A DNA stretch of 64,000 nucleotides from NCBI GenBank assembly GCA_947459205.1, contig CANHCR010000002.1, positions 8,498 through 72,497 of the forward strand, given 5' to 3'. How positions within the stretch are numbered: the stretch's first letter is position 1; each line of letters begins with the position of its first letter. The position numbers were made by a program, and so were the translations under genes. This stretch comes from Bacillales bacterium. GTDB lineage: Bacteria > Bacillota > Bacilli > Paenibacillales > CANHCR01. Below the pieces are notes generated by a model. It saw nothing but the letters and a program-made list of their open reading frames with translations. It was not told the DNA's origin and made no database searches. Positions 1-51,000 of the stretch are shown here, piece after piece.

Positions 1-46
1 AGCTTGCGAACGTGTCCAGTCGCGTTAAGGTGCTTTAACTGCTATA
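1..46. repeat. att-like repeat (core gtccagtc + arm ctttaactgctat), truncated by window edge
   Basis: Matches 44120-44163 and 47222-47265. Confidence 0.75.
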
Positions 47-56
47 AAAAAATAAA

Positions 57-2360
57 TTAGTCCGCTTTCAGTATATACGGTTCATTTGATGAGCCAGTTC
101 CTCTATTAACGTATATAGTAGAAGACAAGTTCAACTGCAATGCTGGTCGAACACCAATAAAGTCTCCATATGCATCATAAATATAAACTAGACTGTTATC
201 GTAAACATAATGTACAAATTCTGATGAATCCGTTTCAGGAGTGTTAACCCAATAACTCCAACCAAACCCGTATTCATAATCCTGCTTTCTATACTCTGTT
301 TTTTTGATAGCTGAGTTGGTTGGTTTCCCTACAATAAAATCATCACCTAAAACGGAGGAATTGTCCAATACATAATCTTTCAATTCTTTTACTGAAAGAA
401 TAAATACTTTATCAGTTATCAATTTATACCACGCCGTGTCATAATTTGACTGCATTTCTTGAACTGAATAGTATGCTGAATCGTGTGTATATTTAAATGG
501 TTCCAAACCGCCGTCAGCTTGACTTTGTTCATTTCGAGTCAATAATACTTTATGAGTACGTGGTTTAATCCACTCTCGTTCAGTTGTTGTGAAATTCCCG
601 TCAGCTAAAAATCCCTTTTCTTTTCCATACGCATTATTGCCATTTTCTAAATTTTCTTTATTAGGTGAGTTCTGATTCCAAGAAACTGCATTGTAAGAGT
701 TATTTAGCCATTGCCTCAAATTTGAATGTTCGTAATTGTTGCTACCAGATTTATATCTATCAGAATTAGAGTTGATATGATTTGGCCCAGCAGCATCAAA
801 AGCCTTAATGCTTATGATTTTATCACTAAAAAGTATCGGATCACCTTCATCATCCTTGTGAATCACCCGCCATAAAATCGGTTCATCATAGTATTTGCCG
901 AACTGGATATAGTCTCCGATTTTCAGTTCTCCTTGACTCACTTTTAGATTAACCGATGCATTTTTATCCATCGATTTGCCTACCGCAGGTTGCTGACTGA
1001 TGACTGTATCTTTAATTGCTTTATCCCATACATACTCAACTTTAATCCGCTGTTTTGTATAGCCTCTTCCTAACAAATCCTTTCTCGCATCTTCCAGCTT
1101 CTGATTTGTATAATCTTTGATTAGTACAGGTTTCGGGTTAACGATTTCCTTCGGAGAATTATTAACGACCAGTTCTTTATCATTCGAAAAATAGCTAAAC
1201 ATCCAGATTCCGCTTGTAACCAGTAAAGCAAGCAATGCAAACAAACCTAATAACCTTACATTCTTCTTACCAAAAGCATTTTTCTGTTCCTTTAATTGAC
1301 TTTTATCATTTTGAATTCCTATGTTCTTTTCCACTTGACGATCATCTTTAGTCTCATCATACATTTGGTCCGTTGATTCCATCTTACCAACCGCTAATCG
1401 AATACCTGTTAATGAAGCCTGAAATTCGGCCATCGTTTGCCAACGATTGTTGGTTTGAAGACTCAACCCCTTCATCACGGCGTTGTTGAATGGCTTAGGT
1501 ACATTTGCGAGTACAGGGATTGGCTCTAGATTATCTTCCTGAGTCCGAGCCATAGCATCATCCGGGACCACTCCAGTGACAGTGAGATAGATTGTTGCTG
1601 CTACAGCATAAACATCCGTCCACGGTCCTTGTTTCCCTTTTGTTGTGTACTGCTCGGCAGGTGCATACCCCGGTTTGAGAATAACTGACAGACTTTTGCT
1701 CATGTCACCTAGAGTTTGTCTTGCTGCTCCGAAATCAAGGAGCTTCACCTGTTTGTCACGATTTATATAAATGTTATCAGGACTGATGTCACGATGTAAC
1801 ATGCCAACCGAATGAACTTCTCGCAGCGCATCCATAACCGGCGTCATAATGTCCAACGCTTCTTGCCATGATATTCGACCACCCTTTTGTGCCAAAAATT
1901 GTTTCAGTGTAATCCCTTCCACGTACTCCATAACAATATATCCAGTATTGTTGGCATGAAAAAAATCTCGAATCGACACAATACCAGGATGATTGTTAAA
2001 CATCGCAAGCGTCCGTGCTTCATCGAGAAATTTATCCAACCCATCTTTGAATAATTCCGTCCGTTCTCCTGAATAAACAATAACATTTGTCTCTCGGTGA
2101 GCGCGTGTCGCAAAATCACGAGGAAGATACTCTTTGAGCGCGACTTTTTGACGCAACATAAGATCAATCGCTAAATAAGTATTGCCAAACCCACCTGACC
2201 CAAGTAGACGACCAACTAAATATTTGCCATTTAACAGTGTTCGCAACGGCAGTGCCTGCGGTTCAGCGGACATCTGTCGGTCATCAACATTGCAAAGTGG
2301 GCAAATGATATTTTCTTTTTTGACTTCCATGCAATGTAAGCATATTTGATTGATGTCCAT
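57..2360 (-). CDS. Hanks-type Ser/Thr kinase with TM helix, PASTA domain and C-terminal DUF6273-like domain
   Basis: GSGGFG, VALKE, HRDISPDN, DFG; hydrophobic TM; PASTA (VISQQPAVG..VNLKVSQG); GDYIQFGKY..ILWRVI..SNLRQWLN..GVRPAL; start taken at MDINQ after an RBS. Confidence 0.9.
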   Translation of the reverse strand: MDINQICLHCMEVKKENIICPLCNVDDRQMSAEPQALPLRTLLNGKYLVGRLLGSGGFGNTYLAIDLMLRQKVALKEYLPRDFATRAHRETNVIVYSGERTELFKDGLDKFLDEARTLAMFNNHPGIVSIRDFFHANNTGYIVMEYVEGITLKQFLAQKGGRISWQEALDIMTPVMDALREVHSVGMLHRDISPDNIYINRDKQVKLLDFGAARQTLGDMSKSLSVILKPGYAPAEQYTTKGKQGPWTDVYAVAATIYLTVTGVVPDDAMARTQEDNLEPIPVLANVPKPFNNAVMKGLSLQTNNRWQTMAEFQASLTGIRLAVGKMESTDQMYDETKDDRQVEKNIGIQNDKSQLKEQKNAFGKKNVRLLGLFALLALLVTSGIWMFSYFSNDKELVVNNSPKEIVNPKPVLIKDYTNQKLEDARKDLLGRGYTKQRIKVEYVWDKAIKDTVISQQPAVGKSMDKNASVNLKVSQGELKIGDYIQFGKYYDEPILWRVIHKDDEGDPILFSDKIISIKAFDAAGPNHINSNSDRYKSGSNNYEHSNLRQWLNNSYNAVSWNQNSPNKENLENGNNAYGKEKGFLADGNFTTTEREWIKPRTHKVLLTRNEQSQADGGLEPFKYTHDSAYYSVQEMQSNYDTAWYKLITDKVFILSVKELKDYVLDNSSVLGDDFIVGKPTNSAIKKTEYRKQDYEYGFGWSYWVNTPETDSSEFVHYVYDNSLVYIYDAYGDFIGVRPALQLNLSSTIYVNRGTGSSNEPYILKAD

Positions 2361-2489
2361 GGAATGCGCTACACCTTCTTGTGAGTGAAAAATGAAAACG
2401 ATAACATACAAAGTTTATCACAAAAATTGCTTGTAGCATATACAAAAACCCTTTATATACCATTGTATAAAAGTACACGACAATCCATT

Positions 2490-2670
2490 AATTCAAAGAA
2501 TCAACGGACCGCCAGGTGCCTTATTAAATACTAGATTTCATTCTATATTTTCTAATCTAGTTTTTGCAAAAAACTAGATTTACTAGACTGTCGTTTGAGC
2601 TACTGTACATAAAAATAATGTATACAGTTTGCGACGTGTCCAACCGAGTTAAACAACTTTATCTGCTATG
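2490..2670. repeat. ~180-bp direct repeat of 47087-47265 containing a tandem pair of att-like sites
   Basis: aatcaacggaccgcc..ccttattaaat.ctagattt..tgcaaaaaactagattt..gtttgagctactgtacataaaaa shared by both copies. Confidence 0.9.
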
Positions 2671-2995
2671 GAAATTCTGCACTTCTTACAGAGTGAGGTG
2701 AATCACACCATTCACCGGGAATTTCTTGTTTAGGTGCTTTACATTTGATGAGTGATTGCTCCTTTTTGTCCGATATCTAATTGATACCGTAACAGATAAA
2801 TTTTATCACAAATTTACTTGCAGCATACACAAAATTTCTTTATAACATTGTATAAAAATTACCCGACAATCCGTGAATTCACTGAATCAACGGACCGCCG
2901 GGCAACTAATTTAACTATATTTTTTTAAGATTTAGGGTATAATTTAAATGTGTTCTTTACGAAGCTACCTGATCGCCAAATCAAAGGTAGCTTTT

Positions 2996-3442
2996 TTAAT
3001 ACCCTTCTTCGTAATCTTGGTCGTAAATAGACGGTTGACGAGTCCGATAACCTTCTATATCGGCGTACATCTTACCATCTTTTCCCCTCTTGTGATAGAC
3101 TACGAACCATAAATGGATGCCGATAATATCCTGGATTTCTAAATCATCAGGAACATTCTTTTCAAACACTGCATTCAGAAACTGAACAAATGCACTATCA
3201 GGTCCCTCGCTCACAAAGAGACGTTTGTTAATGTTGTAATTTTTCACCGAGGTCCGGATCAAAAATTTCACATCAAGCGCATTCTTCGTGCCATAAGGCG
3301 TTTTCACACCTTCAACGATGTTCACATTGACAATCTCCGCATAATATCCGCCTTCTGCAAGCAAGTGCATAGTTTCAGGATTGGATTCTTTTGCTCCAAT
3401 CTGTATAATTTTCTTTGGATCTTTACCATCAAAAATTCTCAT
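2996..3442 (-). CDS. Hypothetical protein, probable phage/MGE-type OB-fold ssDNA-binding protein (DUF669-like)
   Basis: EGGYYAEIVNV..DLEIQDIIG..VYHKRGKDGKMYADI pattern and acidic tail DQDYEEGY. Confidence 0.5.
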   Translation of the reverse strand: MRIFDGKDPKKIIQIGAKESNPETMHLLAEGGYYAEIVNVNIVEGVKTPYGTKNALDVKFLIRTSVKNYNINKRLFVSEGPDSAFVQFLNAVFEKNVPDDLEIQDIIGIHLWFVVYHKRGKDGKMYADIEGYRTRQPSIYDQDYEEGY

Positions 3443-3568: not shown

Positions 3569-5269
3569 TCAATCCGGATTTTTCTCAACTTTTGATTCCG
3601 ACGTCAGAATCTTTTCGCCCATATTCATTAGAAAGCCATCATCAGATGAAACACCGGCGTTTGCAAAGAATCGATTCATCGACATTTTGAATTGAATCTC
3701 AACCCCGGACCTGTGCACCGTTACCCTCTCAACAAGTGAGCCGAGTAGCATTTTCTTTTTTTCAATTGGAGCATTTTCATACACTTCGCTCCATACAGGA
3801 ATGAATTGTTGTAGTGCGTCCAGCTCGAGAAATTCAACTTTTTTGCTTTCTAATTTCTCCGAAACAATGGCGATCTGTTCCATGATGTTCTTTTTCTCCG
3901 CTTCTTTGGTTAGAATCAACCTGTTCAACCGATCGCGGTCGAACGAGCTTACCCCTTGAATGACTCGAATGATTTCTCCCTCAAGCCCCAAGATTTCTTT
4001 TTCAAGCGTGTTCAGTTGTTTGTTAAGCTTTTTCAACTCAGTCACCTCAGAAGCTGTGTTCTTCTTTCGCAGTTCATCAATCTCTTTTCCAAGGTCCATT
4101 TTCTTAAGCTTGTCCAAGTAATTTTTGACTTCGTCTTCAACGAGACCTTCAACAATATTCTTGGAAAAAAGCTTTTGTCCGTCACACTGCGCCTTTTTCA
4201 ACGCCTTACCTGAACAACGGTACTTTGCATTTTTACTTACTTTCAAAGTGCCATCGACGGTGTGATATTTGCGCATGTTGTACATTGTGGTTAGAGGACT
4301 GCCACAGTGACCGCATCGGATCAAGCCGACCAAAAGTAATGGACCTTTTGTTGATCGAATGCATGGAACATCTACATTCGCTGTGTTGTGTGGATTCCGC
4401 GCCGCGCGGGTTTTCTGTACGCGATTCCACTTCGCTTCATCAATGATGATTAACTCAGGATTCGCCATTTTCGAGAAAACAGCATCATTTGTGCGACGAC
4501 CGTAAGTAAAGATACCTTTGTACATTGGGTTTTTTAGCAAATAATTTACAGTAGCTGCCGTCCATGTCGTACCCGTTTTTGAAAGAACCCCTTTTTCATT
4601 GAGTGCGCAAGCAATGCGTAATTGTCCGTAACCTAACGTGTCAACTAGATTGTAGATCCACTTCACAATCTCCGCCTCTTCCGGGTCGATGACCATCTTT
4701 AATACCGGCTTTCCTTTCTTGTTCAACTCACTAGCGATTTCTAAACGGTACCCAAAAGGTGCAGAACCACCTCTATACATGCCATCCTCAACTAGCGCCT
4801 TGTGCGCTGCAGTGACACGCGTGGCAGTTTTGCCACTCTCGCCTGAGGATTGCCATGACCGAATGAACGCCATGAGTTCGTCTATATGAGAGTTAAACGT
4901 CTGCTGACCTTCCTTCACTGTCCATACTTCTACTCCTGTCTTGACAAGCTCCTGAATGAAAAATGGAGTGTCGTCATGACGGCGACCGAAGCGATCGAAC
5001 ATGAATGCCAATATTACATCGAACTTTCCTTTCTTTGCATCTAGCAAGATTTGTTGCAAAACATCTCGCTCATTTGACTTTTTCTTGAACCCAGAGACGC
5101 CTAATTCTCTGTACTCGTCTACGAGTTCCCATTCCGGCTTGCTCGCGATAAATTGCTTACATTCACGTTGCTGAAGCGGGATATCGCCCACATTATTATT
5201 AAAAGTCACTTGATTTTTTGACGATACCCTATAAAGCGTTACTACTCGTTTTTTTTGTGTTTCGAACAT
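3569..5269 (-). CDS. Large serine recombinase (resolvase, recombinase, Zn-ribbon and coiled-coil domains)
   Basis: LYRVSS catalytic Ser, GVSG, FDRFGR, APFGY, LKNPMYKG, CGHCG..YRC..C. Confidence 0.95.
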   Translation of the reverse strand: MFETQKKRVVTLYRVSSKNQVTFNNNVGDIPLQQRECKQFIASKPEWELVDEYRELGVSGFKKKSNERDVLQQILLDAKKGKFDVILAFMFDRFGRRHDDTPFFIQELVKTGVEVWTVKEGQQTFNSHIDELMAFIRSWQSSGESGKTATRVTAAHKALVEDGMYRGGSAPFGYRLEIASELNKKGKPVLKMVIDPEEAEIVKWIYNLVDTLGYGQLRIACALNEKGVLSKTGTTWTAATVNYLLKNPMYKGIFTYGRRTNDAVFSKMANPELIIIDEAKWNRVQKTRAARNPHNTANVDVPCIRSTKGPLLLVGLIRCGHCGSPLTTMYNMRKYHTVDGTLKVSKNAKYRCSGKALKKAQCDGQKLFSKNIVEGLVEDEVKNYLDKLKKMDLGKEIDELRKKNTASEVTELKKLNKQLNTLEKEILGLEGEIIRVIQGVSSFDRDRLNRLILTKEAEKKNIMEQIAIVSEKLESKKVEFLELDALQQFIPVWSEVYENAPIEKKKMLLGSLVERVTVHRSGVEIQFKMSMNRFFANAGVSSDDGFLMNMGEKILTSESKVEKNPD

Positions 5270-5298: not shown

Positions 5299-5481
5299 TT
5301 AAGCGACTGACACCTCCTTGGTCGACCTGGACTCAATGAATTCGTCTTTCAGCATCTCGACGATTTCGTCTTCGTTCAACGAATCAACTTCTACAAATTT
5401 AATGGTTACCCATTGTCCATACTTCTTATTGAACTTCCTCACGCTAATACCATCCGACATCACTTCATACTCACTCTCCAT
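5299..5481 (-). CDS. Small protein directly upstream of the recombinase (possible directionality factor)
   Basis: Strong RBS AAGGAGG, 60 aa; function inferred from position only. Confidence 0.5.
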   Translation of the reverse strand: MESEYEVMSDGISVRKFNKKYGQWVTIKFVEVDSLNEDEIVEMLKDEFIESRSTKEVSVA

Positions 5482-5726: not shown

Positions 5727-5751
5727 AAAAACGGACCATTAAAGGTCCGTT
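5727..5751 (-). terminator. Intrinsic terminator after the resolvase pair
   Basis: aacggacc/ggtccgtt hairpin with T-run on the - strand. Confidence 0.6.
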
Positions 5752-6163
5752 AGCCCACGCGATCAATTCCTATGCGATATATCTTTATCAGAATTTTGAG
5801 TAACAATGAATTACTTGCCGTCAACGTGTTCAATCCTTCGTCAAGCGACACCAACCGAACTTCACCGTTAAGTATCTTATCATGAATTCCCGGAGCAAAT
5901 TGGTTGCCATCAAACAACTTTAACAAATCGGTTACTATAATTAATTTACAGTTATCGTTCCTGCATTCTTCAGCGACATTCTTGAGTCCTAATCTATTTT
6001 GGTCCCTAAGGCCAGCCAAGTCTTGGATCGAACTCACGACATAAAAACCCTGTTCGTCAGCAAACTTTTTTAACCGATCTGTTTGATCATTAAGCGAAAA
6101 AGGATTTGCCGCCAGTGCGTAAATTAATGCATGATTTTCAAAATCATCGTTTCCCCAATACAT
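5750..6163 (-). CDS. Degenerate serine resolvase-fold protein, probably catalytically dead
   Basis: ALIYALAA replaces YxRVS; SLNDQ..LKKFA..GFYVV..QD..G..NRLGL..LIIVTDLLKL keeps the fold pattern; start overlaps the upstream stop. Confidence 0.6.
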   Translation of the reverse strand: MYWGNDDFENHALIYALAANPFSLNDQTDRLKKFADEQGFYVVSSIQDLAGLRDQNRLGLKNVAEECRNDNCKLIIVTDLLKLFDGNQFAPGIHDKILNGEVRLVSLDEGLNTLTASNSLLLKILIKIYRIGIDRVG

Positions 6164-6738
6164 TAAGAAACCCCCTTTTGCTTCAACGCTCTATATAAGA
6201 CTGATTCTGAAACGCCTGTCATTTCTACAATTTCTCTAACGCTACAATTTCTTGAATTGTACAACTTCACAGCTCTCGCTACTTTTTGCTTATCCGTTCG
6301 TGGTCGACCGCCAATCCTACCGCGAGCTCTCGCTGACGCCAAACCCTCCGAAACACGATCACGTAAAACATCGCGTTCGAACTCAGATAACGCTGCCATT
6401 AGCGTCAACATTAATTTGCCAGTGGTTGAGGAAAAATCAAGTCGCTCTTTTAATGAGATGAACGTAATCCCCTTTGATTGCCACCCTTGAATAATCTGTA
6501 GGAGATCCTTCGTCGATCGGGATACCCTACTTAAGCTTTCGACGACTACAGTGTCGCCTGGTCGTAATACTTTTTGTAATTCTGTAAGCGCGGGTCTATC
6601 GATTTTTGAGCCGCTCATTTTGTCAGCATATACATCATTCTTAAATATTCCGTATTCTTTCAATACATCAAACTGCCGATCTAAGTTTTGATCTAATGTA
6701 GATATCCGAGCATAACCAAACACCTTTCCAGTCATCAT
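6163..6738 (-). CDS. Small serine resolvase/invertase (Pin/Hin/Tn3 family)
   Basis: GYARIST.DQNL.RQ, DRPAL, SLSRVSR, ARARGRIGGRP, C-terminal HTH. Confidence 0.95.
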   Translation of the reverse strand: MMTGKVFGYARISTLDQNLDRQFDVLKEYGIFKNDVYADKMSGSKIDRPALTELQKVLRPGDTVVVESLSRVSRSTKDLLQIIQGWQSKGITFISLKERLDFSSTTGKLMLTLMAALSEFERDVLRDRVSEGLASARARGRIGGRPRTDKQKVARAVKLYNSRNCSVREIVEMTGVSESVLYRALKQKGVS

Positions 6739-25835: not shown

Positions 25836-25851
25836 TGACCTTCGCGAATGT

Positions 25852-26136: not shown

Positions 26137-26147
26137 CTTTTTCCCCT

Positions 26148-26589: not shown

Positions 26590-26653
26590 GCCTAAAAAAT
26601 AAGCTTTGAAATATCCTTTTTGTAATTACGCAAAGTTCTTTATTTCATCAATT

Positions 26654-27037: not shown

Positions 27038-27063
27038 TTGTCATCCTCCCTTGAAGGTATCCA

Positions 27064-27735: not shown

Positions 27736-27751
27736 AAAAAACACCCCTTAA

Positions 27752-30982: not shown

Positions 30983-30999
30983 TGTTTCACCTCGATTTT

Positions 31000-35526: not shown

Positions 35527-35546
35527 CGTCTTGCTCCTCTCATAAA

Positions 35547-40253: not shown

Positions 40254-40279
40254 ACTTACACCTCCATCAACTCATTTTA

Positions 40280-40375
40280 TCATTTTATTCCATCAAAGAA
40301 ATCTTTATCCTTCTCAAAAGGCAATGTCACCGGCTTATAAAATAACAACTTGTCCTCTTTCTTGAATACCGACAT
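40280..40375 (-). pseudogene. 3' stub of a third Hsp70-like paralog
   Basis: Translates MSVFKKEDKLLFYKPVTLPFEKDKDFFDGIK*, matching AVYKEDNRLLFRAPIHIPFEKDEDFFDGLK*. Confidence 0.85.
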
Positions 40376-40516
40376 TTTAAAGTACATTTCTTTTATAAAT
40401 ATAATTCAAGTTACCTCAAAATCAGTTTGTGAAAATCTAAAAATTTAATTATGTGTCTTGCCACCTGTTTTTATCTCAATCAAACTAAATTCCTCCCGCA
40501 AAGTGAAACTAATTGT

Positions 40517-42190: not shown

Positions 42191-42618
42191 GCCTTCATTT
42201 GAATTTTAGCAATTCGAATCGAGTGCACTCTGGAATTATGTAGGATTGAAAAGATCGTCCCAATCTCCACTACAAAGCAAGCTTTTAGCTTTCTGAAAAA
42301 GATTTCTTGCATAATCCCTACAAACTGCTGCGGAATTTGAATCTTCGTCTCTTTATTCACCAGTCTACCAAGGTATGAATCTTGCATACTTACATTTTGA
42401 CTAAATTGATTCTGATCACACCATTTTACAAACAAATTATAATTATCTTTTACATTGCAAAAAGGACTAGATGTGAATCCAGCTACTCCGACAATCGTGC
42501 ACTCCATCGGGTAATTGTTAGTGTCATTGTAGATTAGTTCTTTCACCGTAGCCTCTATGAAATATTTTCTCGTTCTTATTCTATCTTTGACTCGGGTAAT
42601 TCGTTTTTTCGTTGACAT
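42187..42618 (-). CDS. Hypothetical protein overlapping the Sir2-like gene start
   Basis: RBS GAGGAG; stop/start overlap. Confidence 0.7.
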   Translation of the reverse strand: MSTKKRITRVKDRIRTRKYFIEATVKELIYNDTNNYPMECTIVGVAGFTSSPFCNVKDNYNLFVKWCDQNQFSQNVSMQDSYLGRLVNKETKIQIPQQFVGIMQEIFFRKLKACFVVEIGTIFSILHNSRVHSIRIAKIQMKA

Positions 42619-43119
42619 TAATTTATCTCCTCAAGCAAAAATTCCAATCACTAATTCGCCAACAATAACATTCTAAACTACTAGGATATACAAATAATGT
42701 CCATATAGTAAAGAAATCTAAGAAGAATTCTTTAGTTGTTGATTATAGTAACGTGTCGACAATAAGATGTATTTCCAGCAGTGTTTTACTGGTTCAAATT
42801 ACCTGTGAACAGTTTCTTAACTCCATGTTATGAAGAGTATCATATGTGTTTGAAATCCATTCCAGAAAAGATTCCATTGTTTTTCCCTTCACACAAAGCA
42901 TCCAACCAACCTTCAATGTCAGTTGTCGTTTTCTCCAGTTGATTTGCATAAAATCACGAGATAATTACTATTTAAGTTCCGAAAATTATAATTCTCCATA
43001 ATTGAGGATAAATCCTGCTAATTGCCGATAATATGTAAAATAATTAGCATCACCCATAAAACTCAATCACCAACGCCTCAAATTTTCGAGTCTTCTGTTC
43101 ACTGATCTCGAAGTCCATA

Positions 43120-43422
43120 CTAAAAATCGAGCATCACCTTCGCAAGTTCGTAAGTCTCCGGACTCTTCTTACCGGCTCTCTCTAAGCAGATGGTCCACAT
43201 CTTTTTGACTACACGCTCGACTTTCACTTCGTCATACTCTTCAAGCACCGCCAGCAAATAATTGTATAACGCATAAAACGGCAAATTCGGCGAAACCTCA
43301 AATAAACTTCTCATGTTGTATCGGGCTAAATATTTGACGATTAATATTTTCATGTCTTCTTCACAACCATCGAGCACCTCGATCATCACGCGGAATGAAA
43401 GATGAAGTCCATTGACGCTCAA
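43120..43422 (-). CDS. Hypothetical protein or gene fragment
   Basis: 100-aa ORF with protein-like composition in a decayed region. Confidence 0.35.
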   Translation of the reverse strand: MSVNGLHLSFRVMIEVLDGCEEDMKILIVKYLARYNMRSLFEVSPNLPFYALYNYLLAVLEEYDEVKVERVVKKMWTICLERAGKKSPETYELAKVMLDF

Positions 43423-43949
43423 TTTTCATAGCACAATGAAACTAAAACATCGACTAACTCATCGAACCTACCAGGAAGTCTTTTCTGTTTTGAGTTGTCG
43501 ATTTACTGCAGTAATATCGACAAATTCTTTGATTTTATTTTTCATTTCACGATTACTTGAATAGAGTTGACCTTGTCCCAAATTGTAAGAGAGAGAACAC
43601 AGTCTTGGTGCCAAATGTGCCAACGACACATTGCGCCTGTCGAATGAAATCATGGGTTCACTGCTTCATTTAATAATCCAACAAAATCCGCTCAAACTTA
43701 CGAGTCTTTTCAACATCCAATTCAGTATTCATGTAAAAATCTCGCATCACAACGGCCATTTCATACGTGGCCCGGCCCTTCGCACCGACTTGCTCGAGGC
43801 AAAATTCCTAGTACTTAAGTGCAAAACGCTCAACTATGACCAGATTAAAATATTACTACTGTTTATTAGGAAAATCTGTAGAGACGAAAAACATCTCGCA
43901 CACGTCATACTCGACTAAATAATAGACAATTAATATTGAACATCCTCAC

Positions 43950-44008
43950 AAGGCGAATCAAACGCCTCTAGCATGATTTGTTGCTCTCCCAAACTGAGCC
44001 AATCCCCC
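43950..44008 (-). pseudogene. Decayed tRNA-Ala remnant (acceptor 5' strand, D-arm and T-arm)
   Basis: GGGGGATTGGCTCAGTTTGGGAGAGC..AGGCG-TTTGATT-CGCCT; flank resembles 50838-50862. Confidence 0.6.
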
Positions 44009-44056
44009 TTGGTTATTGCCAATATTCACTTTTTCGTGCATTCCTGAGACGATTCT

Positions 44057-44163
44057 ATAGCAGTTAAAGTAGTTAGTTCGTCCTGCCAGCTGAGTTACTG
44101 TACATAAAAACTGGAGACAACTTGCGAACGTGTCCAGACGCGATAAACGACTTTAACTGCTAT
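44057..44163. repeat. Tandem pair of att-like sites bounded by a 14-bp inverted repeat
   Basis: atagcagttaaagt (44057-44070) / actttaactgctat (44150-44163); cores gtcctgcc and gtccagac. Confidence 0.85.
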
Positions 44164-44208
44164 GGAGTAAGATGTCGATGCTTGCGGATCGACCTCAAAA
44201 ATGAATAA

Positions 44209-44637
44209 TCATCCAAGTGCAGTGATAAACTTATTCGAAGATAGCGACTTTTTCCATCCGGCTTTCAAGATGAAGCTCAATAGATACCCGCGCAATCCTT
44301 CAAAGCCTGTATGTTCTAGTGTTAAAGTCGTTCCACCATCTTCAGCACTCAACTTCCAAGTTACGGTTGTAGGTTGCTTCATCCAGTTCCCTGCAAAAGA
44401 ATACACAAGAAGTTCCTGCTTACTTACTTGCAAAAGTTCACAATGCATACGTCCATCCCAAGAACCTTGAGGTTTCGATACAAACGAGAACTTGAAACCA
44501 ATCGGCATTTCATCCAAATTTCCTGGAAGGTCATTTTCCGTGAACCAAGTCGCCAAAGCATGTTTATTTGTCAATGCAAACCAAACTTTATCAATGGTAT
44601 GGGGATAAAATCGAGTGATAGAAATCTTTTTTGCCAT
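44209..44637 (-). CDS. SRPBCC/AHSA1 domain protein
   Basis: DKVWFALT..LATWF, TTVTWKL..GGTTLTLEHTGF, AGW. Confidence 0.9.
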   Translation of the reverse strand: MAKKISITRFYPHTIDKVWFALTNKHALATWFTENDLPGNLDEMPIGFKFSFVSKPQGSWDGRMHCELLQVSKQELLVYSFAGNWMKQPTTVTWKLSAEDGGTTLTLEHTGFEGLRGYLLSFILKAGWKKSLSSNKFITALG

Positions 44638-44640
44638 TTA

Positions 44641-44979
44641 TTATTCATCCTCTGAAAATTTGTCTAAGAATCGACCCAGTTCATCTAACTTGTCTGTCCA
44701 CAACGGCTCAAACATTTGAATCCACTGATTGACGCCCTGCAAAGCATGTCCTTGTAATTTGCAACGTGTTTCTCTACCTAACTTACTCATCGAAATTAAA
44801 CCGGCATCTTTCAAAACTTGTAAATGCTTCACAACTGCATTTCGACTTAGGGGAAAATGGTTGCAAAGTGATGCAATCGAATGTTCCCCAATCATTAACA
44901 CTTCCAGTAGTTTTCTTCTTGTACGATCACCGATTGCAAAAAACACATCCGTCTCACTCTCTATCTGCATGGTTGTCAC
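44641..44979 (-). CDS. ArsR/SmtB family regulator
   Basis: DVFFAIGDRTRRKLL, SRNAVVKHLQVLKDAGLI. Confidence 0.9.
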   Translation of the reverse strand: MTTMQIESETDVFFAIGDRTRRKLLEVLMIGEHSIASLCNHFPLSRNAVVKHLQVLKDAGLISMSKLGRETRCKLQGHALQGVNQWIQMFEPLWTDKLDELGRFLDKFSEDE

Positions 44980-44988
44980 ACCTCAATT

Positions 44989-45046
44989 ATAACACCATTA
45001 AGTGTTAATTTTTATCATAATATAACACTCATGATGGTTATGTCAA
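44989..45046 (-). promoter_or_regulatory. Promoter (TTGACA at 45041-45046) with two imperfect palindromes, likely ArsR operators
   Basis: AACAC-cattaa-GTGTT and ATAAC..GTTAT. Confidence 0.5.
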
Positions 45047-45055
45047 TGAAAGCAC

Positions 45056-45086
45056 AAAAAAAACGTGACCGCGTTCGTCACGTTTA
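45056..45086 (-). terminator. Intrinsic terminator after fic
   Basis: aaacgtgac/gtcacgttt stem plus T-run. Confidence 0.7.
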
Positions 45087-45119
45087 TAAATCAACTCATA
45101 TTATTAAGAGTATCTACAA

Positions 45120-45857
45120 TTACTTTATCATACATAGATATCGAACGAGTTGCTCATCCTCAAGAACAGCAATCATATCGGTAAACAAATGAAGATCTTG
45201 ATGAACAGCATATTCTTCCAGTGCATTAAAATACTCAAGCCTTGATTCTTTTTTGATTGAAATTGGCAAAAAACCATTTACCATCAACTGATAATTCATA
45301 ATCAACCGAGATGTTCTACCGTTCCCGTCCGCAAACGGATGAATTCGCACAAATTCAGCATGTGTCCAAGCAGCAAGTTCAATGACATTTTCAAACGTTT
45401 TTTGTTCTAAATCAAAATAAAAACCTTTGATTTGACGGTACATTTCATTTGGTGAAGGCGGAGTATGTGCAGCTCCAGATATGTATACATCAACATTCCG
45501 GTAAACTCCACCGATCATTATGTTTTCCATTAAAATAGCATGAATATCTTTGATAATATCTTCATTTAAAGGACGTTGTTCATTGATACACTTTTTCACA
45601 TATTGAAAAGCTTTATTATGGTTCACAACCTCATACAGCTCACGTAATTGTTTTCCACCAACGGAAATCCCTTCTTCAAGAACAACTTTTGTCTCAAGTA
45701 GCGTAAGAGTATTGCCCTCAATTGCCGTAGAATGATGGGTGTATTCGACATCAAAAGCCTGAGAATAACTATTGACTGTATAATCCGAAAGCAAATATTT
45801 CATCTTATCATATTTACGTTTTTTGCTTAATAACTCTTGATAATTCAACGATTTCAC
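45120..45857 (-). CDS. Fic domain protein (class II, N-terminal auto-inhibitory motif)
   Basis: HPFADGNGRTSR; STAIEGN. Confidence 0.95.
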   Translation of the reverse strand: MKSLNYQELLSKKRKYDKMKYLLSDYTVNSYSQAFDVEYTHHSTAIEGNTLTLLETKVVLEEGISVGGKQLRELYEVVNHNKAFQYVKKCINEQRPLNEDIIKDIHAILMENIMIGGVYRNVDVYISGAAHTPPSPNEMYRQIKGFYFDLEQKTFENVIELAAWTHAEFVRIHPFADGNGRTSRLIMNYQLMVNGFLPISIKKESRLEYFNALEEYAVHQDLHLFTDMIAVLEDEQLVRYLCMIK

Positions 45858-45919
45858 CTCGGAATCATTTAACTATTTTTAAATTCATTCACATTATAGA
45901 CCATTTGGAGTCAAATGTG

Positions 45920-46051
45920 CACAAAAAAGACGCCCAGACTGCAATATGTAGACCGAACGCCGATTTCACAATTCCAATTATGCAACCACTGTGGTTTGCA
46001 CTAATGCTATAAAGCAATACGCTCTGCCGTGTTAACTACTTTAACTGCTAT
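45920..46051. repeat. Terminator plus att-like site; direct repeat of 49124-49243
   Basis: gacgcccag.ctgc..agac.gaacgcc.attt..aattccaatta..gcaatacg..ctgcc. Confidence 0.8.
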
Positions 46052-46061
46052 AAAATTAGTA

Positions 46062-46433
46062 TTATACCCGTGACAAACAATTTTCAGACGAAAAAACATT
46101 CCGCATTTTAAACTCCGCCGGACTTTCCGCAAGATACACTAATCTCAATAAATCCGGTGGATTCCCCACAAAATACGGATCCTTCAAATAGTATTTCGAG
46201 TCGAACACCCATACAGGAATTTGCAAACCTGACTCACGCGCGAGTTTGTGGACTGCTGATGCAATAAGAGCAAGAGTACAATCATCTAAAGAAAGTCGGT
46301 CTGCCGACTCATTTATCATCTCAATTTTTTCCACTTTTTCCGCAACATAAAAAGCGTCTAAAAACATCGACCACGCGAATGTAAAATCTCTTCCAACGCT
46401 CAGATACTGATTGATAATCGATACCATATTCAT
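46062..46433 (-). CDS. Hypothetical partner of the nucleotidyltransferase (putative TA component)
   Basis: FLDAFY..ALIASAVHKLA..IPVWV..P.F..ESPAEFKMRNVF; overlaps the upstream gene. Confidence 0.7.
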   Translation of the reverse strand: MNMVSIINQYLSVGRDFTFAWSMFLDAFYVAEKVEKIEMINESADRLSLDDCTLALIASAVHKLARESGLQIPVWVFDSKYYLKDPYFVGNPPDLLRLVYLAESPAEFKMRNVFSSENCLSRV

Positions 46434-46966
46434 GCAAACAATCCCTCCGCAAACGCGACTGTCCTCACACTGAGAAACTTTCGCGGAACATACTTTTCAA
46501 CAATATCCAGTACGTCAATGTAAGAATTAAGTTTCAGATGATTTTTAAGAAAAATCGCATCCTCGCGGTCCTTGCTTCCCTCTCTTGCAGCATAGCATTT
46601 CATCGCCAAAATATATTCTGCAGTCGCTGACTGAATTTTTAGATTCGAGTATATTTTCACTTCAACATGTGGTGGATTTGTGTAAATAAACCCCTTGACC
46701 CCATCGTTCAACCAATCCTCTTGTATATTCATTTCCTTGGCAACTTCTTTGGCCATTTGATACAAATCTGTTTTCGGTTGAAAAATCGCATCAACATCGC
46801 GCGTGTATCCTCGACTTCCGAACACTAGACACATGGATGCGCCACCGAAAATGATAATTTCACCGTGCTCGTCGGCTTGAGCTAATCTTTGATTTAATTT
46901 TTCGAAACAAGCCAGCATCAGTTGTTTATCTAAATTCACATCTTTGTTCATCATATCCCCAACCAC
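46430..46966 (-). CDS. DUF6036-like nucleotidyltransferase
   Basis: IIFGGASM..RGYTRDVDA, WLND, YILAMK..A.R..D.ED. Confidence 0.8.
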   Translation of the reverse strand: MVGDMMNKDVNLDKQLMLACFEKLNQRLAQADEHGEIIIFGGASMCLVFGSRGYTRDVDAIFQPKTDLYQMAKEVAKEMNIQEDWLNDGVKGFIYTNPPHVEVKIYSNLKIQSATAEYILAMKCYAAREGSKDREDAIFLKNHLKLNSYIDVLDIVEKYVPRKFLSVRTVAFAEGLFA

Positions 46967-47086
46967 TCGAAATTTATATTCCTAGTTCAATTATACCCTA
47001 AATTGAAAAAGAGGTCGACGCATTCGCATCAACCTCTGAATTACGATACTGAAACAATCCCATAAATAGTTACCCAACGGTCTTTT

Positions 47087-47265
47087 AATTCACTAAATCA
47101 ACGGACCGCCATTCACCTTATTAAATCCTAGATTTAATTCTATATATTCTAATCTAGTCATTGCAAAAAACTAGATTTTCTAGTCTGCCGTTTGAGCTAC
47201 TGTACATAAAAACTGGAGACAACTTGCGAACGTATACAGCTGCGTTAAACGACTTTAACTGCCAT
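47087..47265. repeat. ~180-bp direct repeat of 2490-2670 with a tandem att-like pair
   Basis: Direct comparison of the two copies. Confidence 0.9.
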
Positions 47266-47354
47266 GAAATATTTTCAATAGATGAAATGGACAAAGTTAT
47301 CGACAGAAAAACAGATCCAAAACAGGGGGAGCGTATCGACAGTCCCCATACCTT

Positions 47355-47810
47355 CTAATTACATAATTTGACTGCTTCCCTAAATGCTTGGGCCAGATTC
47401 CCATTGCGTATGGATTTACCGATACAAATCGCGTCTTCTTCGGGATGTTCAAATCCATTTTTCACATTTTTTGACGGCTCAATTTTGTACCCTTCATCAG
47501 AATACCATTCTACGCTTATGAACCTCATGTTCTGAATTGCTTTTGCATATCCTCTAATCTTAAGAAGTTTCTCAATAACTGATGGCCTTAATTTCCCATT
47601 AGGTTCTATGACATTCCACTCATCCAATGCGCGAAGTAAATATGATTCTATTTTTTCATCGGAGTACCCTCGATCCAAAACATGATGCATGTCAAGGTCG
47701 CAAGTTACTCCTCCCCATTTTTTTGAAATCCCTCTTGGAATAATAATGATATCTTCATTTGATGTAATGTAAACACTAACCAATTTATATTTATAACCCA
47801 CAACAAACAC
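47355..47810 (-). CDS. Orphan CdiI/DUF1436-like immunity protein
   Basis: VSVY..IIIIP, L..AL, LKIRGY..A..M.FISV, YKIEPS, LAQAF.EA..LC pattern; no toxin gene adjacent. Confidence 0.5.
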   Translation of the reverse strand: MFVVGYKYKLVSVYITSNEDIIIIPRGISKKWGGVTCDLDMHHVLDRGYSDEKIESYLLRALDEWNVIEPNGKLRPSVIEKLLKIRGYAKAIQNMRFISVEWYSDEGYKIEPSKNVKNGFEHPEEDAICIGKSIRNGNLAQAFREAVKLCN

Positions 47811-47846
47811 CCTTTCCGCAAGCTTAACTTTAATGAGGATTAAGTC

Positions 47847-49061
47847 CTAAATCAACCACACGGGGACCATCAGATTTTGTCGGTCAATAGGTAACAACTC
47901 GCGAGAGACACATATCAAATTGCCTGTACCCATTCGTTTCCCTGTCTTCTCAAGTGCCTTGAAATGTCGAATCGCATCTGCTTTTGGCGTCCCAGACTTC
48001 TTCACCTCTATCGGATATAACACATCGTTCTTCTCGATCATTAAATCGATTTCCTTGCCATCTGTATCACGGTAGTAAAACAACGGAGGCCGCTTGCCAG
48101 CATTCAAAAAACTTTTGTAAATCTCGCTAACGACATACGTCTCAAAAAACGCTCCCGACATCGCCGAAACCTCAAGTGACTCAGGATTCGTCCACCTTGT
48201 CAACCACGCACAAAGTCCAGTGTCCATAAAATATAGCCGTGGCGATTTCACGATCCGTTTCAACGCATTATTGAAATACGGTTCAATCAAAATCACAATT
48301 CCAGACGACAATAGCATCGATAGCCATTGTTTCGCGGTCGGTGAACTGATGCCCACATCTTTTGCTAGTTCCGAGTAGTTTAATAGTTGTCCCGTTCGTG
48401 CAGCACAGGCAGTCATAAACCGCAAAAATGCCAATTCATCTCCAACCTGCGTCAATTCGCGAATATCACGCTGTAAATACGTATTGACGTACGAAGAGTA
48501 GAAAAGTTCGATGTCCTGTTCCGTTTCATAAAGTGCCGGCATCGAACCTTTGTGGATTCGTTTGAAAATCTCTTGAACATTCATTTCTTTGGCGGTTTTT
48601 AATTTATCTGATAATGAATCAAAATCAGGCTGATATGCGCCTGTGCTACCTTCTGAAATTTCTGCTTGAGACAGCCCTTGTATGGGAATCACCGCGACTC
48701 GACCAGCTAAACTCTCGCTTACATTTTTCATCAAATGAAACATCTGCGAACCAGTCAGCCAAAAATCACCTTTTCGCCTATGTTCATCTACATACATTTT
48801 TATATATGGCAGTAACTGCGGTGCATATTGAATTTCATCGATAATAAGTGGTGGTTGATATCGTTGCAAAAAAAGTTCGGGATCGGTCACTGCCAACTCA
48901 CGAATCACAGGGTTATCTAAAGTAACATAGGTTCGATCAGATTCAGCCATCGTTCGTAAAAGCGTAGTCTTACCCACTTGTCGCGGTCCAGTTAGTAATA
49001 ACACTGCATAAGCATGATTTGCATTTTGAATCACTTGTTCTAAATGGCGATTGATGAACAT
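47847..49061 (-). CDS. AAA_14 + DUF4143 ATP-binding protein
   Basis: GPRQVGKTT, IDEIQ, LTGS, KSPRLYFMDTG, FETYV, EIDL..IEVK. Confidence 0.9.
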   Translation of the reverse strand: MFINRHLEQVIQNANHAYAVLLLTGPRQVGKTTLLRTMAESDRTYVTLDNPVIRELAVTDPELFLQRYQPPLIIDEIQYAPQLLPYIKMYVDEHRRKGDFWLTGSQMFHLMKNVSESLAGRVAVIPIQGLSQAEISEGSTGAYQPDFDSLSDKLKTAKEMNVQEIFKRIHKGSMPALYETEQDIELFYSSYVNTYLQRDIRELTQVGDELAFLRFMTACAARTGQLLNYSELAKDVGISSPTAKQWLSMLLSSGIVILIEPYFNNALKRIVKSPRLYFMDTGLCAWLTRWTNPESLEVSAMSGAFFETYVVSEIYKSFLNAGKRPPLFYYRDTDGKEIDLMIEKNDVLYPIEVKKSGTPKADAIRHFKALEKTGKRMGTGNLICVSRELLPIDRQNLMVPVWLI

Positions 49062-49123
49062 AGCACACCTCGGTTATTTTAAAGTGCAGATTTATTATAA
49101 ACGATTTTCTGAAGTTATTCCAC

Positions 49124-49249
49124 AACAAAAAAACGACGCCCAGTCTGCTTTACTGCAGACGGAACGCCAATTTCCAAAATTCCAATTAATAAGATTTGCA
49201 TTAGTGTTTCATGGCAATACGTCCTGCCAGCTGAGTTACTGTAACTCAG
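49124..49249. repeat. Terminator plus att-like site (core gtcctgcc) ending in palindrome ctgagttac-t-gtaactcag
   Basis: Repeat of 45920-46028; arm matches 44080-44102. Confidence 0.8.
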
Positions 49250-49382
49250 ATTAATACTTTATTGATTTCTATATCGATAAATCATCAACAAAAATTATTT
49301 TCATACTTTAAAGTAAAAAAGTTTATTATTCTTTAAAAATTGTGTATAATAAAACTAAAAGTTTATTGTGGGAGGAACTCAA

Positions 49383-50621
49383 ATGTCCGAACTCATCGCA
49401 AGATCAGAGTACATGCGCCAACTTATCGATCACAAAGACATCGATTTGGTCAAAATCGTAACCGGCATTCGTAGATGTGGAAAGTCTTCATTACTCGAAT
49501 TATTCCACACACATCTCATTTCTTCCGGCATACCCGAGAACTGCATTATTCATATGAACTTAGAGTCGCTGAAGTACAGAGATCTGACCGACTACCTCAT
49601 ATTTTATGATTTTGTCAGCACGCGAATTTCTCAAAGCGGAAAAACGTATTTGATTTTCGACGAGTTGCAGTCAGTACAAGGTTGGGAAAAAGCAATCGAG
49701 TCATTTCGGCTCGATTTTGATGTCGATATTTACATCACCGGCTCGAACGCATACTTGCTGTCCACTGAGTTTTCAACCTTACTCTCAGGTCGCTACATCG
49801 AAATTCGCGTGCTTCCCCTGTCATTTAAGGAATTTTTAACTTTCTATGATTTTGGCTCCGAGGTCACCGTGGAGGATCAATTTCAAAAGTACTTACAGTT
49901 TGGTGGTATGCCCGTGCTCCGCCAATATATGTTCAATGAAATTCGAAGCAATGAGGCTTTGGAGGCTATCTATGCAACGGTGGTTTTACGTGACATATTG
50001 CAAAGAAACAATACTTCCGATCAACACATTTTGAACAAAGTCGTTCGATTTCTCTGTTCAAATATCGGCAGTATCACATCCCCGAACAATATCGGCAACA
50101 TCCTTTCCAGAGAAGGAGATATTGAATCAGCAAAAAGTGGTAAAAGCCAAAATGTCGCTGGCAAGACGGTCAGCAAGTATATCTCGATGCTACACAACGC
50201 CTTCGTGTTCTATGCAATTGGTCGCTACGACGTTAAAGGTAAGCAATTGCTAAAAACATTAGAAAAAAACTACATTATCGATTTAGGGTTCCGCAACATG
50301 TTGCTCGGTTACCGCGATGCAGACCGCGGACACATTCTGGAAAACGTGGTGTTTCTTGAACTGCTTCGTCGCGATTTCAGAGTATACATCGGAAAAGTGG
50401 GCGAAACGGAAGTCGATTTTGTTTGTGAGAAACCGAATGACAAAATGTATATCCAAGTAACTGAGAGCATGTCAAACGAAGATGTACGACAACGTGAACT
50501 TCGCCCATTGCAACGAATTCAGGATAACTATGAGAAAATCATTTTGACGATGGACAAAAGCTACATTCGTTCTTATGACGGAATTAAAGTAATGAATATT
50601 ATGGAATGGTTACTTTCGTAA
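49383..50621 (+). CDS. AAA_14 + DUF4143 ATP-binding protein
   Basis: TGIRRCGKS, FDELQ, ITGSNA, LENVV, EVDF, YIQV. Confidence 0.9.
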   Translation: MSELIARSEYMRQLIDHKDIDLVKIVTGIRRCGKSSLLELFHTHLISSGIPENCIIHMNLESLKYRDLTDYLIFYDFVSTRISQSGKTYLIFDELQSVQGWEKAIESFRLDFDVDIYITGSNAYLLSTEFSTLLSGRYIEIRVLPLSFKEFLTFYDFGSEVTVEDQFQKYLQFGGMPVLRQYMFNEIRSNEALEAIYATVVLRDILQRNNTSDQHILNKVVRFLCSNIGSITSPNNIGNILSREGDIESAKSGKSQNVAGKTVSKYISMLHNAFVFYAIGRYDVKGKQLLKTLEKNYIIDLGFRNMLLGYRDADRGHILENVVFLELLRRDFRVYIGKVGETEVDFVCEKPNDKMYIQVTESMSNEDVRQRELRPLQRIQDNYEKIILTMDKSYIRSYDGIKVMNIMEWLLS

Positions 50622-50643
50622 AGAATCAAATACTTTTCAAAAT

Positions 50644-50680
50644 AAAAAAGCAACACATCATTGAATGTTGCTGCTTTTTA
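50644..50680. terminator. Probable bidirectional terminator between the ATPase and tRNA
   Basis: agcaaca/tgttgct stem flanked by A- and T-runs. Confidence 0.55.
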
Positions 50681-50683
50681 CTA

Positions 50684-50754
50684 TGGAGCCATGCGGAATC
50701 GAACCGCAGACTGGTCGCTGCCAGCGACCTGTTTTCCCCCTAAACTATGGCCCC
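50684..50754 (-). tRNA. tRNA-Ala(GGC), intact, with atypical short D-arm
   Basis: GGGGCCA/TGGCTCC-A acceptor with G3-U70; GGTCG-CTGGCAG-CGACC; TGCGG-TTCGATT-CCGCA. Confidence 0.9.
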
Positions 50755-50780
50755 TTGAACTATTCTGTTGCGAATTTACA

Positions 50781-51000
50781 CTCATTTTCGGGTAGTGCAA
50801 CCGACTTAGTCGTCCTCCCAAACTGAGCTAATCCCCCTCGGTATTTCCATTATGCACTTTTCAATCTTTTTGGGGCAGTGAAACCGACTTGCTCGCCTTC
50901 CCCTAAACTATGGCCCCTTGTATCTATTTTGTTACGCCTTGCAGCTCATTTCAGGGTAGTGCAACCGACTTAGTCGTCCTCCCAACTGAGCTATGGCCCC
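50781..51000 (-). repeat. Three tandem hybrids of a tRNA-Ala 5' fragment and a common foreign arm (attL-like scars)
   Basis: GGGGCCATAGCTCAGTTGGGAG, GGGGCCATAGTTTAGGGGAA and GGGGGATTAGCTCAGTTTGGGAG each joined to GACGACTAAGTCGGTTGCACTACCC or GGCGAGCAAGTCGGTTTCACTGCCC. Confidence 0.85.

Follow-up and report, generated by a model that had tools for sequence, protein, structure and literature searches.

Tandem insertions, probably by a tRNA-targeting clade of large serine recombinases, in an island beside the tRNA-Ala(GGC) gene of a Bacillales bacterium

Introduction

Staphylococcal cassette chromosome islands (SCC and SCCmec) combine serial insertion with repeated attachment (att) sequences, recombinase-free units and adaptive cargo. 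Serine integrases are usually described at protein-coding genes or intergenic sites, and tRNA genes are treated as tyrosine-integrase territory. Here we analysed a 64,000-nucleotide stretch of a Bacillales bacterium (G000:C2:8498-72497, contig C2 of genome G000; hereafter the window), in which an island beside the tRNA-Ala(GGC) gene is divided by short att-like repeats. We consider it probable that these repeats are att half-sites of a clade of large serine recombinases (LSRs) that integrate into the D-loop of tRNA-Ala(GGC), and that the island was built up from a series of such insertions, of which some lack recombinase genes.

LSRs of phages and other mobile elements (phiC31, Bxb1, A118/LI and TP901-1 type) have the same domain set and catalytic serine as the LSR encoded in the window. 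Their att sites are likewise short, with a small centre between inverted arms, and the resulting attL and attR hybrids have almost no common sequence; the integrase genes lie at the extreme end of the element, as do those of the homologues of the LSR described here. In contrast to those systems, the target at this locus is a tRNA D-loop, the gene is split by the insertion, and its function would be rescued by an element-borne replacement tRNA and not by the att site. The Islander paper of 2014 stated that no integrase of the serine family was known to have a tRNA gene as its target (PMC4383910). In the literature outside subscription journals and supplements, we found no description of an LSR clade directed at the tRNA-Ala D-loop.

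Both SCC/SCCmec and the Enterococcus cassette chromosome (ECC) grow by serial insertion at one site with repeated att sequences between the units; in the ECC, some units lack recombinase genes and the cargo is variable and adaptive (PMC6222049). In the present island, an LSR is found together with one fixed site, repeats of att halves and units that have no LSR. Target and site structure differ from theirs: there is one LSR instead of a ccrAB pair, the target is a tRNA gene and not the 3' end of rlmH, the landing site appears to be renewed by an element-borne tRNA or pad, and the junctions are distinct attL and attR hybrids instead of one direct repeat. In streptococcal accretion, cis-mobilizable elements (CIMEs) are tandem units with att sites but no integrase beside an element that has one, and the described cases are mostly driven by tyrosine integrases and derive from the decay of integrative and conjugative or integrative and mobilizable elements (PMC5704250). 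The units of the island stand in the same tandem arrangement, but its short cassettes bear no trace of a lost recombinase and have a common dedicated promoter/arm module, as if built non-autonomous. Integrons, too, insert beside a fixed promoter-proximal site and hold an array of short cargo units with the recombination site just past the stop codon; here, however, no IntI-type tyrosine recombinase, attI or folded single-strand attC is found in the island, the cassettes begin with a promoter-like module of their own, and the sites are of several kinds. In none of its defining features does the island qualify as an integron. By analogy, the island would work like SCC/ECC composite islands and CIME accretion (PMC6222049, PMC5704250).

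The island and its repeat family

To the right of about position 51000 lies the core chromosome, with nrdR (51069-51551) followed by an SLT-domain gene, coaE, mutM and polA, at a G+C content of 45-51%. To the left lies the island, with 35-43% G+C and nearly all of its genes on the minus strand. Between the two stands

50684-50754, minus strand: tRNA-Ala(GGC), 71 nt, with an atypical D-arm (ARAGORN; Rfam 57.8 bits)

which is the sole tRNA-Ala among the 45 tRNAs of the assembly. The arrangement of nrdR and then tRNA-Ala(GGC) is conserved in relatives from the same order. The present gene scores just 26 bits against the profile of the relatives' tRNA-Ala, and it was probably carried in by an element.

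A preceding sequence-only reading of the window had described a single family of co-oriented, intergenic att-like motifs, several of them just past stop codons. All of these copies were recovered (cores at 14, 2586/2638, 25805, 44080/44133, 46021, 47183/47232, 49221, 50812, 50895 and 50976), every one is intergenic, and five lie 10-89 nt beyond a minus-strand stop codon (stop/copy edge 46062/46051, 25852/25835, 57/45, 44209/44163 and 47355/47265). Repeat finding groups them as direct families D2, D3, D5, D6, D7 and D12 and as inverted pairs I6, I7, I10 and I24. Orientation is not uniform, as one arm (44057-44079) is inverted, and the copies do not form one motif family: at least four arm types are present, combined as attL-like sites, attR-like sites, a pad and what we call X junctions. 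The earlier observation is thus confirmed in part, and its interpretation is likewise supported in part. The resemblance to a tRNA D-arm that it had pointed out is correct and proved to be the key to the interpretation, the tRNA-like arms being collinear with tRNA-Ala.

The genome-wide motif scan that had been proposed as a check places all significant copies, which greatly exceed chance expectation, in this island and at the end of one other contig, C41. In the 2.52-Mb assembly, a profile of one arm type (the P-type arm, defined below) gave 10 matches at E<0.01, nine in the island and one at C41:21342-21372, with the next-best match at E=0.11; this profile is partly circular, since it was built on a regular-expression set that includes 5 chance copies, and its E-values are rough. 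Nine of the 10 share one strand. Exact 14-mers of the arms gave the same picture (arm A, 6/6 genome matches on this contig; arm B, 4/4), and the 8-nt 'core' by itself, with 37 matches across the genome, is uninformative. One P-type arm, P1, is 28/28 identical in three copies and 27/28 in two, despite unrelated flanks. Furthermore, the array extends past the window on its left side, where window -31, -1465 and -3334 (C2 8466, 7032 and 5163) each hold a copy, and a further copy lies at C41:21343-21370. At its left end C2 encodes the N-terminus of a secreted protein, and at its right end C41 encodes an fn3-rich C-terminal sequence on the same strand; therefore the contigs probably adjoin, which would make the C41 junction the far end of an island of at least 61 kb.

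Arms, junctions and a reconstructed attP

Read on the minus strand, the B arm is the 5' part of a tRNA or tRNA-like copy up to the D-loop GGGAG/GGCAG (consensus TAGCTCAG.TGG(G/C)AG in an ungapped to near-ungapped alignment), the B' arm is the 3' part of the tRNA or its remnant, and together they rebuild the tRNA-Ala(GGC) of the order. The B-arm alignment comprises three tRNA hybrids, the present tRNA, a degenerate tRNA-like gene at 44008 and five B-like arms, all collinear with the tRNA-Ala of relatives. The P arm consists of ATAGCAGTTAAAGTAGTTAACAC followed by GGCAG and carries ATAGCAGTTAAAGTAGTTAAC, and the P' arm is a P-type arm inverted. These arms occur in three pairings: B+P' in three scars at 50790-51000 and at 44057-44103; P+B' at 25808-25835, 46024-46051, window -1465, window -3334 and C41:21343; and B+B', as free sites, in the present tRNA as well as in the pad at 49221. 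These pairings correspond, respectively, to attL, attR and attB of a serine integrase. At window -1465 and -3334, P1 is joined to a 3' part ending ..GGTTCGxTCC..TGGCTCCA that matches positions 39-75 and 40-74 of the tRNA-Ala profile, and at the C41 junction P1 is joined to GGCGCATCGCTG, the anticodon stem of the order's tRNA-Ala.

From these halves an attP of 54 bp was reconstructed (23 + 8 + 23 bp), composed of P1, GGCAGGAC and inverted P1. The inverted arm at 44057-44079 is 95-96% complementary to the P1 arms over 22-24 nt (I6, I10). Size, imperfectly inverted arms and short centre are those of a serine-integrase attP of about 50 bp, and the same build is seen in Paenibacillus sp. QZ-Y1; the hybrids have few common bases, only GGCAG being shared by the cassette borders. 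The crossover would fall at or beside GGGAG/GGCAG, at about tRNA positions 18-22. A hairpin of the X junctions (X_a, R_t) was tried as a further P' arm and rejected, as the motif does not fit.

The recombinase and its homologues

3569-5269, minus strand: LSR, 566 aa, intact (Resolvase PF00239, Recombinase PF07508, Zn_ribbon_recom PF13408)
5750-6738, minus strand: two small serine recombinase ORFs, 191 aa complete and 137 aa partial

Every column that is invariant in 17 homologues is present in the LSR, including Y13 R14 V15 S16 (YRVS), as expected of an intact member of the family. It is the only large serine recombinase of the genome, and no LSR remnants were found elsewhere in it. We inspected the loci of the best 80 of 558 confirmed homologous stretches (35-52% identity). 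Of these 80 loci, 20 show, on the strand of the LSR, a match to tRNA-Ala without the first 3-22 positions of the profile. This attR-type hybrid starts no more than about 0.8 kb past the LSR stop in 19 loci and 2.8 kb past it in the remaining one (L022); its left arm does not resemble a tRNA, e.g. AATGGTAGTG..ACGCGGGAG|AGCGCATCGC... An attL-type hybrid was seen at three loci, namely the closest homologues, those of Geobacillus (L019/L020, 52%), and L031, where the LSR stop abuts a tRNA 5' part and P' arm. At ten Paenibacillus loci, an entire tRNA-Ala(GGC) gene under a promoter of its own is also present, in divergent orientation to the LSR. The attL (tRNA 5' part | ACC..CACTACCAAAG) and attR of Paenibacillus sp. 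QZ-Y1 are separated by 70 kb, and their P and P' arms are inverted repeats. A search of five Paenibacillus genomes for the attL pattern with the exact outer motif gave no matches because the P' arms there differ from the P arms; attL was found through the tRNA 5' part. A second match to the P core in one genome (G405, L101) was set aside as a chance hit, lying within coding sequence and without a tRNA part.

In Geobacillus, Paenibacillus and Clostridia alike, homologues stand directly beside tRNA-Ala hybrids of the same kind, and the arm motif keeps its register. In an ungapped alignment of 18 arms, the arms of the window are in register with those adjacent to the LSRs, all of them have G9, and the outer motif reads rGyAGT; the P1 arm of the window has GCAGT in common with the Geobacillus arm. 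The hybrids beside the homologues and the common arm register therefore indicate that the clade targets the tRNA-Ala D-loop and that the sites of the window belong to it, in agreement with the suggestion of the sequence-only reading that they are tRNA-like att sites of a serine recombinase. The assignment of the window's own LSR to these sites is a matter of inference from the same comparison.

Some subclades of the LSR family (among L019-L098) adjoin tRNA-Val (CAC or GAC) or a complete tRNA-Ala(CGC) in place of tRNA-Ala(GGC), which suggests target switching among tRNAs with similar D-arms. In seven Paenibacillus loci (L023, L028, L030, L036, L038, L044 and L046), a second P-like half-site (..CACTACCAT..) is present on the opposite strand, 40-70 nt ahead of the LSR start. 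It overlaps the region of ribosome binding and may be an autoregulatory binding site; the LSR of the window is without one.

A recombinase-free cassette and its empty site

46024-47184, minus strand: recombinase-free cassette, 1,161 bp, with R3 module, two ORFs and a P1 arm at 46029-46051
49127-49249, minus strand: unoccupied tRNA-like landing pad (pseudo-attB), with the B-like arm CAGTAACTCAGCTGGCAG, right arm R2 and terminator hairpin
45915-46028, minus strand: right half of an occupied pad (attR-like), with GGCAG, R2 and terminator, paralogous to 49127-49223
47185-47265, minus strand: X junction, composed of X_a (47206-47265; P-variant arm, hairpin and T-run) and X_b (47185-47205)
2588-2669, minus strand: X junction upstream of the kinase cassette, composed of X_a (2609-2669) and X_b (2588-2608)
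1-45, minus strand: X_a of the next X junction (P-variant arm and hairpin), its X_b lying outside the window at C2 8462-8482
46-2587, minus strand: kinase cassette, with R3 module at 2474-2587 (D3, 85%), leader and Ser/Thr kinase gene 57-2411, which matches the PD-T4-6 defence family

The island contains its own empty site for the first of these units. When the cassette is removed, its flanks (to 47185 on one side, from 46023 downward on the other) together give a sequence collinear with the pad at 49221, in which 139 identical columns span the B-like arm, R2 and the terminator, and GGCAG stands at both cassette borders; therefore 46024-47184 is an insertion at GGCAG. The recombinase-free units proposed earlier thus exist, and one of them is bounded to the base by this internal comparison. 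Its ORFs encode a DUF6036/DUF2204 nucleotidyltransferase (46430-46966) and a partner (46062-46433), with the P1 arm 10 nt past the stop codon. Its R3 module comprises an arm in the P' position, CTAG palindromes, a promoter-like TTGCAA-18-TAGAAT and a GGCGGTCCGTTGATT leader. The left, attL-like border is X_b (47185-47205), a B-like arm ending in GGCAG; the unit therefore lies between an attL-like and an attR-like site without a recombinase of its own, in an island with a single LSR, as a CIME does.

The kinase cassette and a unit at window -36 to -1475, which encodes a DUF3221 protein, are built in the same way, from a B-like arm and R3 through cargo to a P-type arm; the kinase cassette is closed by the P-variant arm that belongs to the following X junction. 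At least one, and probably three, short recombinase-free cassettes are present. In all four copies of the X junction, the P-variant arm, hairpin and T-run stand directly before the B-like arm.

A lone GGCGGTCCGTTGATT.. leader without an X junction lies at 2855-2914, followed by a possible 27-codon ORF (2700-2790) whose stop, by eye, would be the TAG within CCATAGCAG of the next P-variant arm. Either side of the free pad at 49221, two divergent genes (47847-49061 and 49368-50621) encode AAA_14/DUF4143 ATPases, one of which matches the PADLOC candidate system PDC-S01 (E=2e-112).

Stacked scars at the tRNA gene

51022-51050, minus strand: promoter-like site TTGTAA-17-TATAAT, 10/12 matches, upstream of the first attL scar
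50954-51000, minus strand: attL scar 1, tRNA-Ala 5' part GGGGCCATAGCTCAGTTGGGAG and P' arm ..GGTTGCACTACCC
50872-50917, minus strand: attL scar 2, 5' part of the present-type tRNA GGGGCCATAGTTTAGGGG.. and P' arm
50790-50837, minus strand: attL scar 3, 5' part of a GGGGGATT-type tRNA-like gene and P' arm, resembling the pad at 44008

Between nrdR and the present tRNA, three units follow each other, each made of a tRNA 5' part, a P' arm and a spacer of about 38 nt (an 88-nt repeat, D2, at 83/81-nt spacing), after which comes the tRNA. Scar 1 has a 5' part of the ancestral type, collinear with the tRNA-Ala of relatives up to GGGAG, and its P' arm (GGGTAGTG) is in register with Paenibacillus arms. 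Relatives have a promoter at the position equivalent to 51022-51050, upstream of their tRNA-Ala, so that this site is probably the native tRNA-Ala promoter, now reading across three scars into the present tRNA. At the other side of the island, three attR junctions with right arms of tRNA-Ala type occur in nested order (window -1465, window -3334 and C41).

We propose that elements inserted one by one into the tRNA beside nrdR, the three stacked scars corresponding to three successive insertions. Each element would have carried, some 40 nt (about 40 nt) inward of its P' arm, either a replacement tRNA or a tRNA-like pad. A target would thereby have been restored 83 bp beyond the old one, with older material displaced outward, and after each insertion the native promoter would still drive a tRNA-Ala. 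The insertion behind each scar probably brought a new tRNA or landing pad. The present tRNA-Ala(GGC) would be the current attB, and later insertions would have entered pads within the island, among them the 18-kb element described below and the short cassettes, built as promoter module, cargo and P arm. We tried to pair each attL with one attR, which worked in part; a full history is not claimed. The SCC-like growth by accretion suggested earlier is supported, the island having grown by repeated site-specific insertion.

The 18-kb insertion

44057-44163, minus strand: X_a (44104-44163) and attL of the 18-kb insertion, with B-like arm 44088-44103, centre 44080-44087 and inverted P1 (P') 44057-44079
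43945-44008, minus strand: degenerate tRNA-like gene GGGGGATTGGCTCAGTTTGGGAG.., 48 nt inside the attL; ARAGORN makes no call
25712-25835, minus strand: attR of the 18-kb insertion, with P1 25813-25835, GGCAG 25808-25812, a tRNA-like remnant ending GGGTTCGATTCC..CCTTCCA and a terminator hairpin

A fourth insertion of 18.3 kb (25808-44082) is bounded by this pair of sites and carries a gene for a HerA-like ATPase (27752-30982). The layout of its attL end equals the scar, spacer and tRNA at 50684-50837; therefore 43945-44008 is taken as a landing pad carried by the inserted element. The list of units drawn up in the sequence-only reading is accordingly right in part: stretches such as 25.8-44.1 kb are one 18-kb insertion, and the block with the LSR has no P arm beside the LSR. 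Likewise, of the labels Sir2, Hsp70 and HerA given to this cargo, the HerA-like ATPase was found and the other two were not confirmed by Pfam or PADLOC.

The ORFs 31000-35526, 35547-40253 and 40517-42618 match no family in Pfam or PADLOC. The first two are adjacent giant paralogues of 1508 and 1568 aa, with about 72-74% nucleotide identity in several blocks at 4.55-kb spacing (D1, D8, D9 and D10). Beside the HerA-like ATPase, the giant ORFs may constitute an undescribed defence system.

Alternative explanations and points against the proposed reading

The sequence-only reading had proposed an integron-like platform, in which the single LSR, perhaps with a 60-aa ORF (5302-5481) as directionality factor, now excises, captures and reorders cassettes. 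This would be in keeping with at least one recombinase-free cassette inserted site-specifically, three cassettes that have one promoter/arm module in common (D3, D6, D7), P1 arms kept identical, one intact LSR and the free pads at the tRNA and 49221. We compared the Logan contigs of four runs, one of which may have yielded this DNA, with positions 31600-51599 (run X4 covers only parts of 44.3-51.6 kb, unbridged) and found no excision or reordering joint at any core, in contigs that drop rare forms and circles and that break at repeats, as unitigs do. Two contigs of run X2 part from the reference exactly where the P1 arm has its outer edge (46053, 46063) and go on into letters absent from the assembly, one continuation reading like a tRNA T-arm; they hint at other P1 junctions in that community and are, for present mobility, a hint only. 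In runs X1-X3, contigs with 2-3x the local depth lead from the present tRNA's 3' end into the 5' part of scar 1 (50711>50979) through 23 intervening letters that can be read as a UGC anticodon arm, with ends matching the sequences at both positions; they probably represent a tRNA-Ala(UGC) gene of the organism that the assembly lacks. Most such joints and loose ends appear to be paralogous junctions, another tRNA-Ala gene or unknown strains. Moreover, the 60-aa ORF has no family match, no second genome with another cassette order was seen, and the sites are a mixture of attL, attR and attB types instead of one recombining, attC-like family. LSRs normally recombine only attP with attB, or attL with attR together with a recombination directionality factor, and are not known to recombine like with like; reordering among the present sites therefore does not follow. 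Cassette shuffling by the resident LSR may occur, and we regard the integron-like platform as an unlikely account of the island.

The X junctions and the R3 modules might also be no products of the LSR at all, having arisen as a duplicated regulatory unit through homologous recombination or as res-like sites of the small recombinases at 5750-6738. A module of about 190 nt in three full copies and one partial copy, 70-86% alike over 87-190 nt, with a hairpin and T-run, CTAG palindromes, a promoter-like site and a leader that also stands alone at 2855-2914, speaks for this, as does the presence of two small resolvase-type ORFs; on the other hand, X_b aligns collinearly both with the 5' half of the tRNA and with the pad arm and is the exact left border of a proven insertion, and X_a starts with a P-type arm, so that we consider such an origin distinctly improbable. 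Still less credible are tandem islands of tyrosine integrases in which the repeats are duplicated tRNA segments. The location of the island at the 3' side of a tRNA with distal tRNA 3' fragments is the usual signature of such islands, according to the Islander paper (PMC4383910), but no tyrosine recombinase (PF00589) lies in the island (the three of the genome are on C1, C5 and C52, two of them Xer-sized), the junctions share about 5 nt (GGCAG) and no long tRNA segment, and the attL scars leave the tRNA unrestored, unlike islands of the Islander type. The arms, furthermore, form an inverted-repeat attP, and LSR homologues elsewhere stand at the same hybrids. A genome-wide repeat of the kind of repetitive extragenic palindromes (REP) or miniature inverted-repeat transposable elements (MITE), or a small tRNA-like RNA family unrelated to recombination, might be suspected from tRNA-like junctions that are followed by terminators and all lie on the transcribed strand. 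Confinement to one island and the C41 end, mostly on one strand, is not the scatter of a REP or MITE family, the Rfam scan of the window found tRNA only and no known RNA family at the junctions, and the arms occur in varied pairings, as att hybrids do; this explanation, too, has hardly any probability.

Several observations weigh against the serial insertion of LSR elements into the tRNA D-loop, which we prefer. At neither end of the window's LSR gene is there a P or P' arm, unlike in the homologues, and the nearest site, the X_a at 2669, is 900 bp off. The P' arms of the scars (GGGTAGTG type) differ from the P1 arms of every attR junction, and no forward copy of this arm type exists in the genome, which would mean either an asymmetric attP or lost partner sites; by eye, 16/22 positions of the scar arms are like a Paenibacillus P arm. 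The acceptor strand of scar 3 (GGGGGAT) pairs with the 3' end of no attR remnant, and the right arm of the 18-kb element's attR matches no known pad. The start of R3 is like the inverted P1 arm at 9/18 positions, as judged by eye. For the X junctions we have no clean explanation, as they are underivable from simple attP x attB events; they may record older events or a duplication through homologous recombination. Finally, the 28-nt P1 arm with up to 3 mismatches was found in 0/400 other genomes of the order and had no matches in JGI metagenome contigs, so that no independent copy of these cassettes is known; the absence indicates only the rarity of these exact arms.

Implications

Judged from the compared loci, an LSR clade across Bacillota (Geobacillus, Paenibacillus and Clostridia) appears to use the D-loop of tRNA-Ala(GGC) and to compensate for the damage with a replacement tRNA. 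If this is true, island finders that pair tRNA fragments with tyrosine integrases only will miss such elements. The stacked attL scars would be a readable record of insertions and show how one site is reusable indefinitely, and very short recombinase-free cassettes with defence genes could ride the same system. The 54-bp attP with the tRNA or a pad as attB could furthermore serve as an orthogonal integrase/att set. A more far-reaching version, which we put forward tentatively and regard as rather doubtful, is a self-renewing tRNA-Ala landing pad, the equivalent of an integron run by a serine recombinase, where the LSR would capture elements bearing a tRNA/attB and mobilise purpose-built, promoter-bearing mini-cassettes without recombinase in trans into pads dispersed over the island, by which anti-phage genes would be collected and exchanged one cassette at a time; a mini-cassette would then read P' arm, operator/promoter, leader, defence gene and P arm.

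Among the cargo genes, the DUF6273 domain is common to the kinase (57-2411) and to an fn3/DUF6273 surface protein (14276-16474), with 72-79% nucleotide identity between 776-918 and 16144-16286 and between 592-644 and 15954-16006 (D4, D15).

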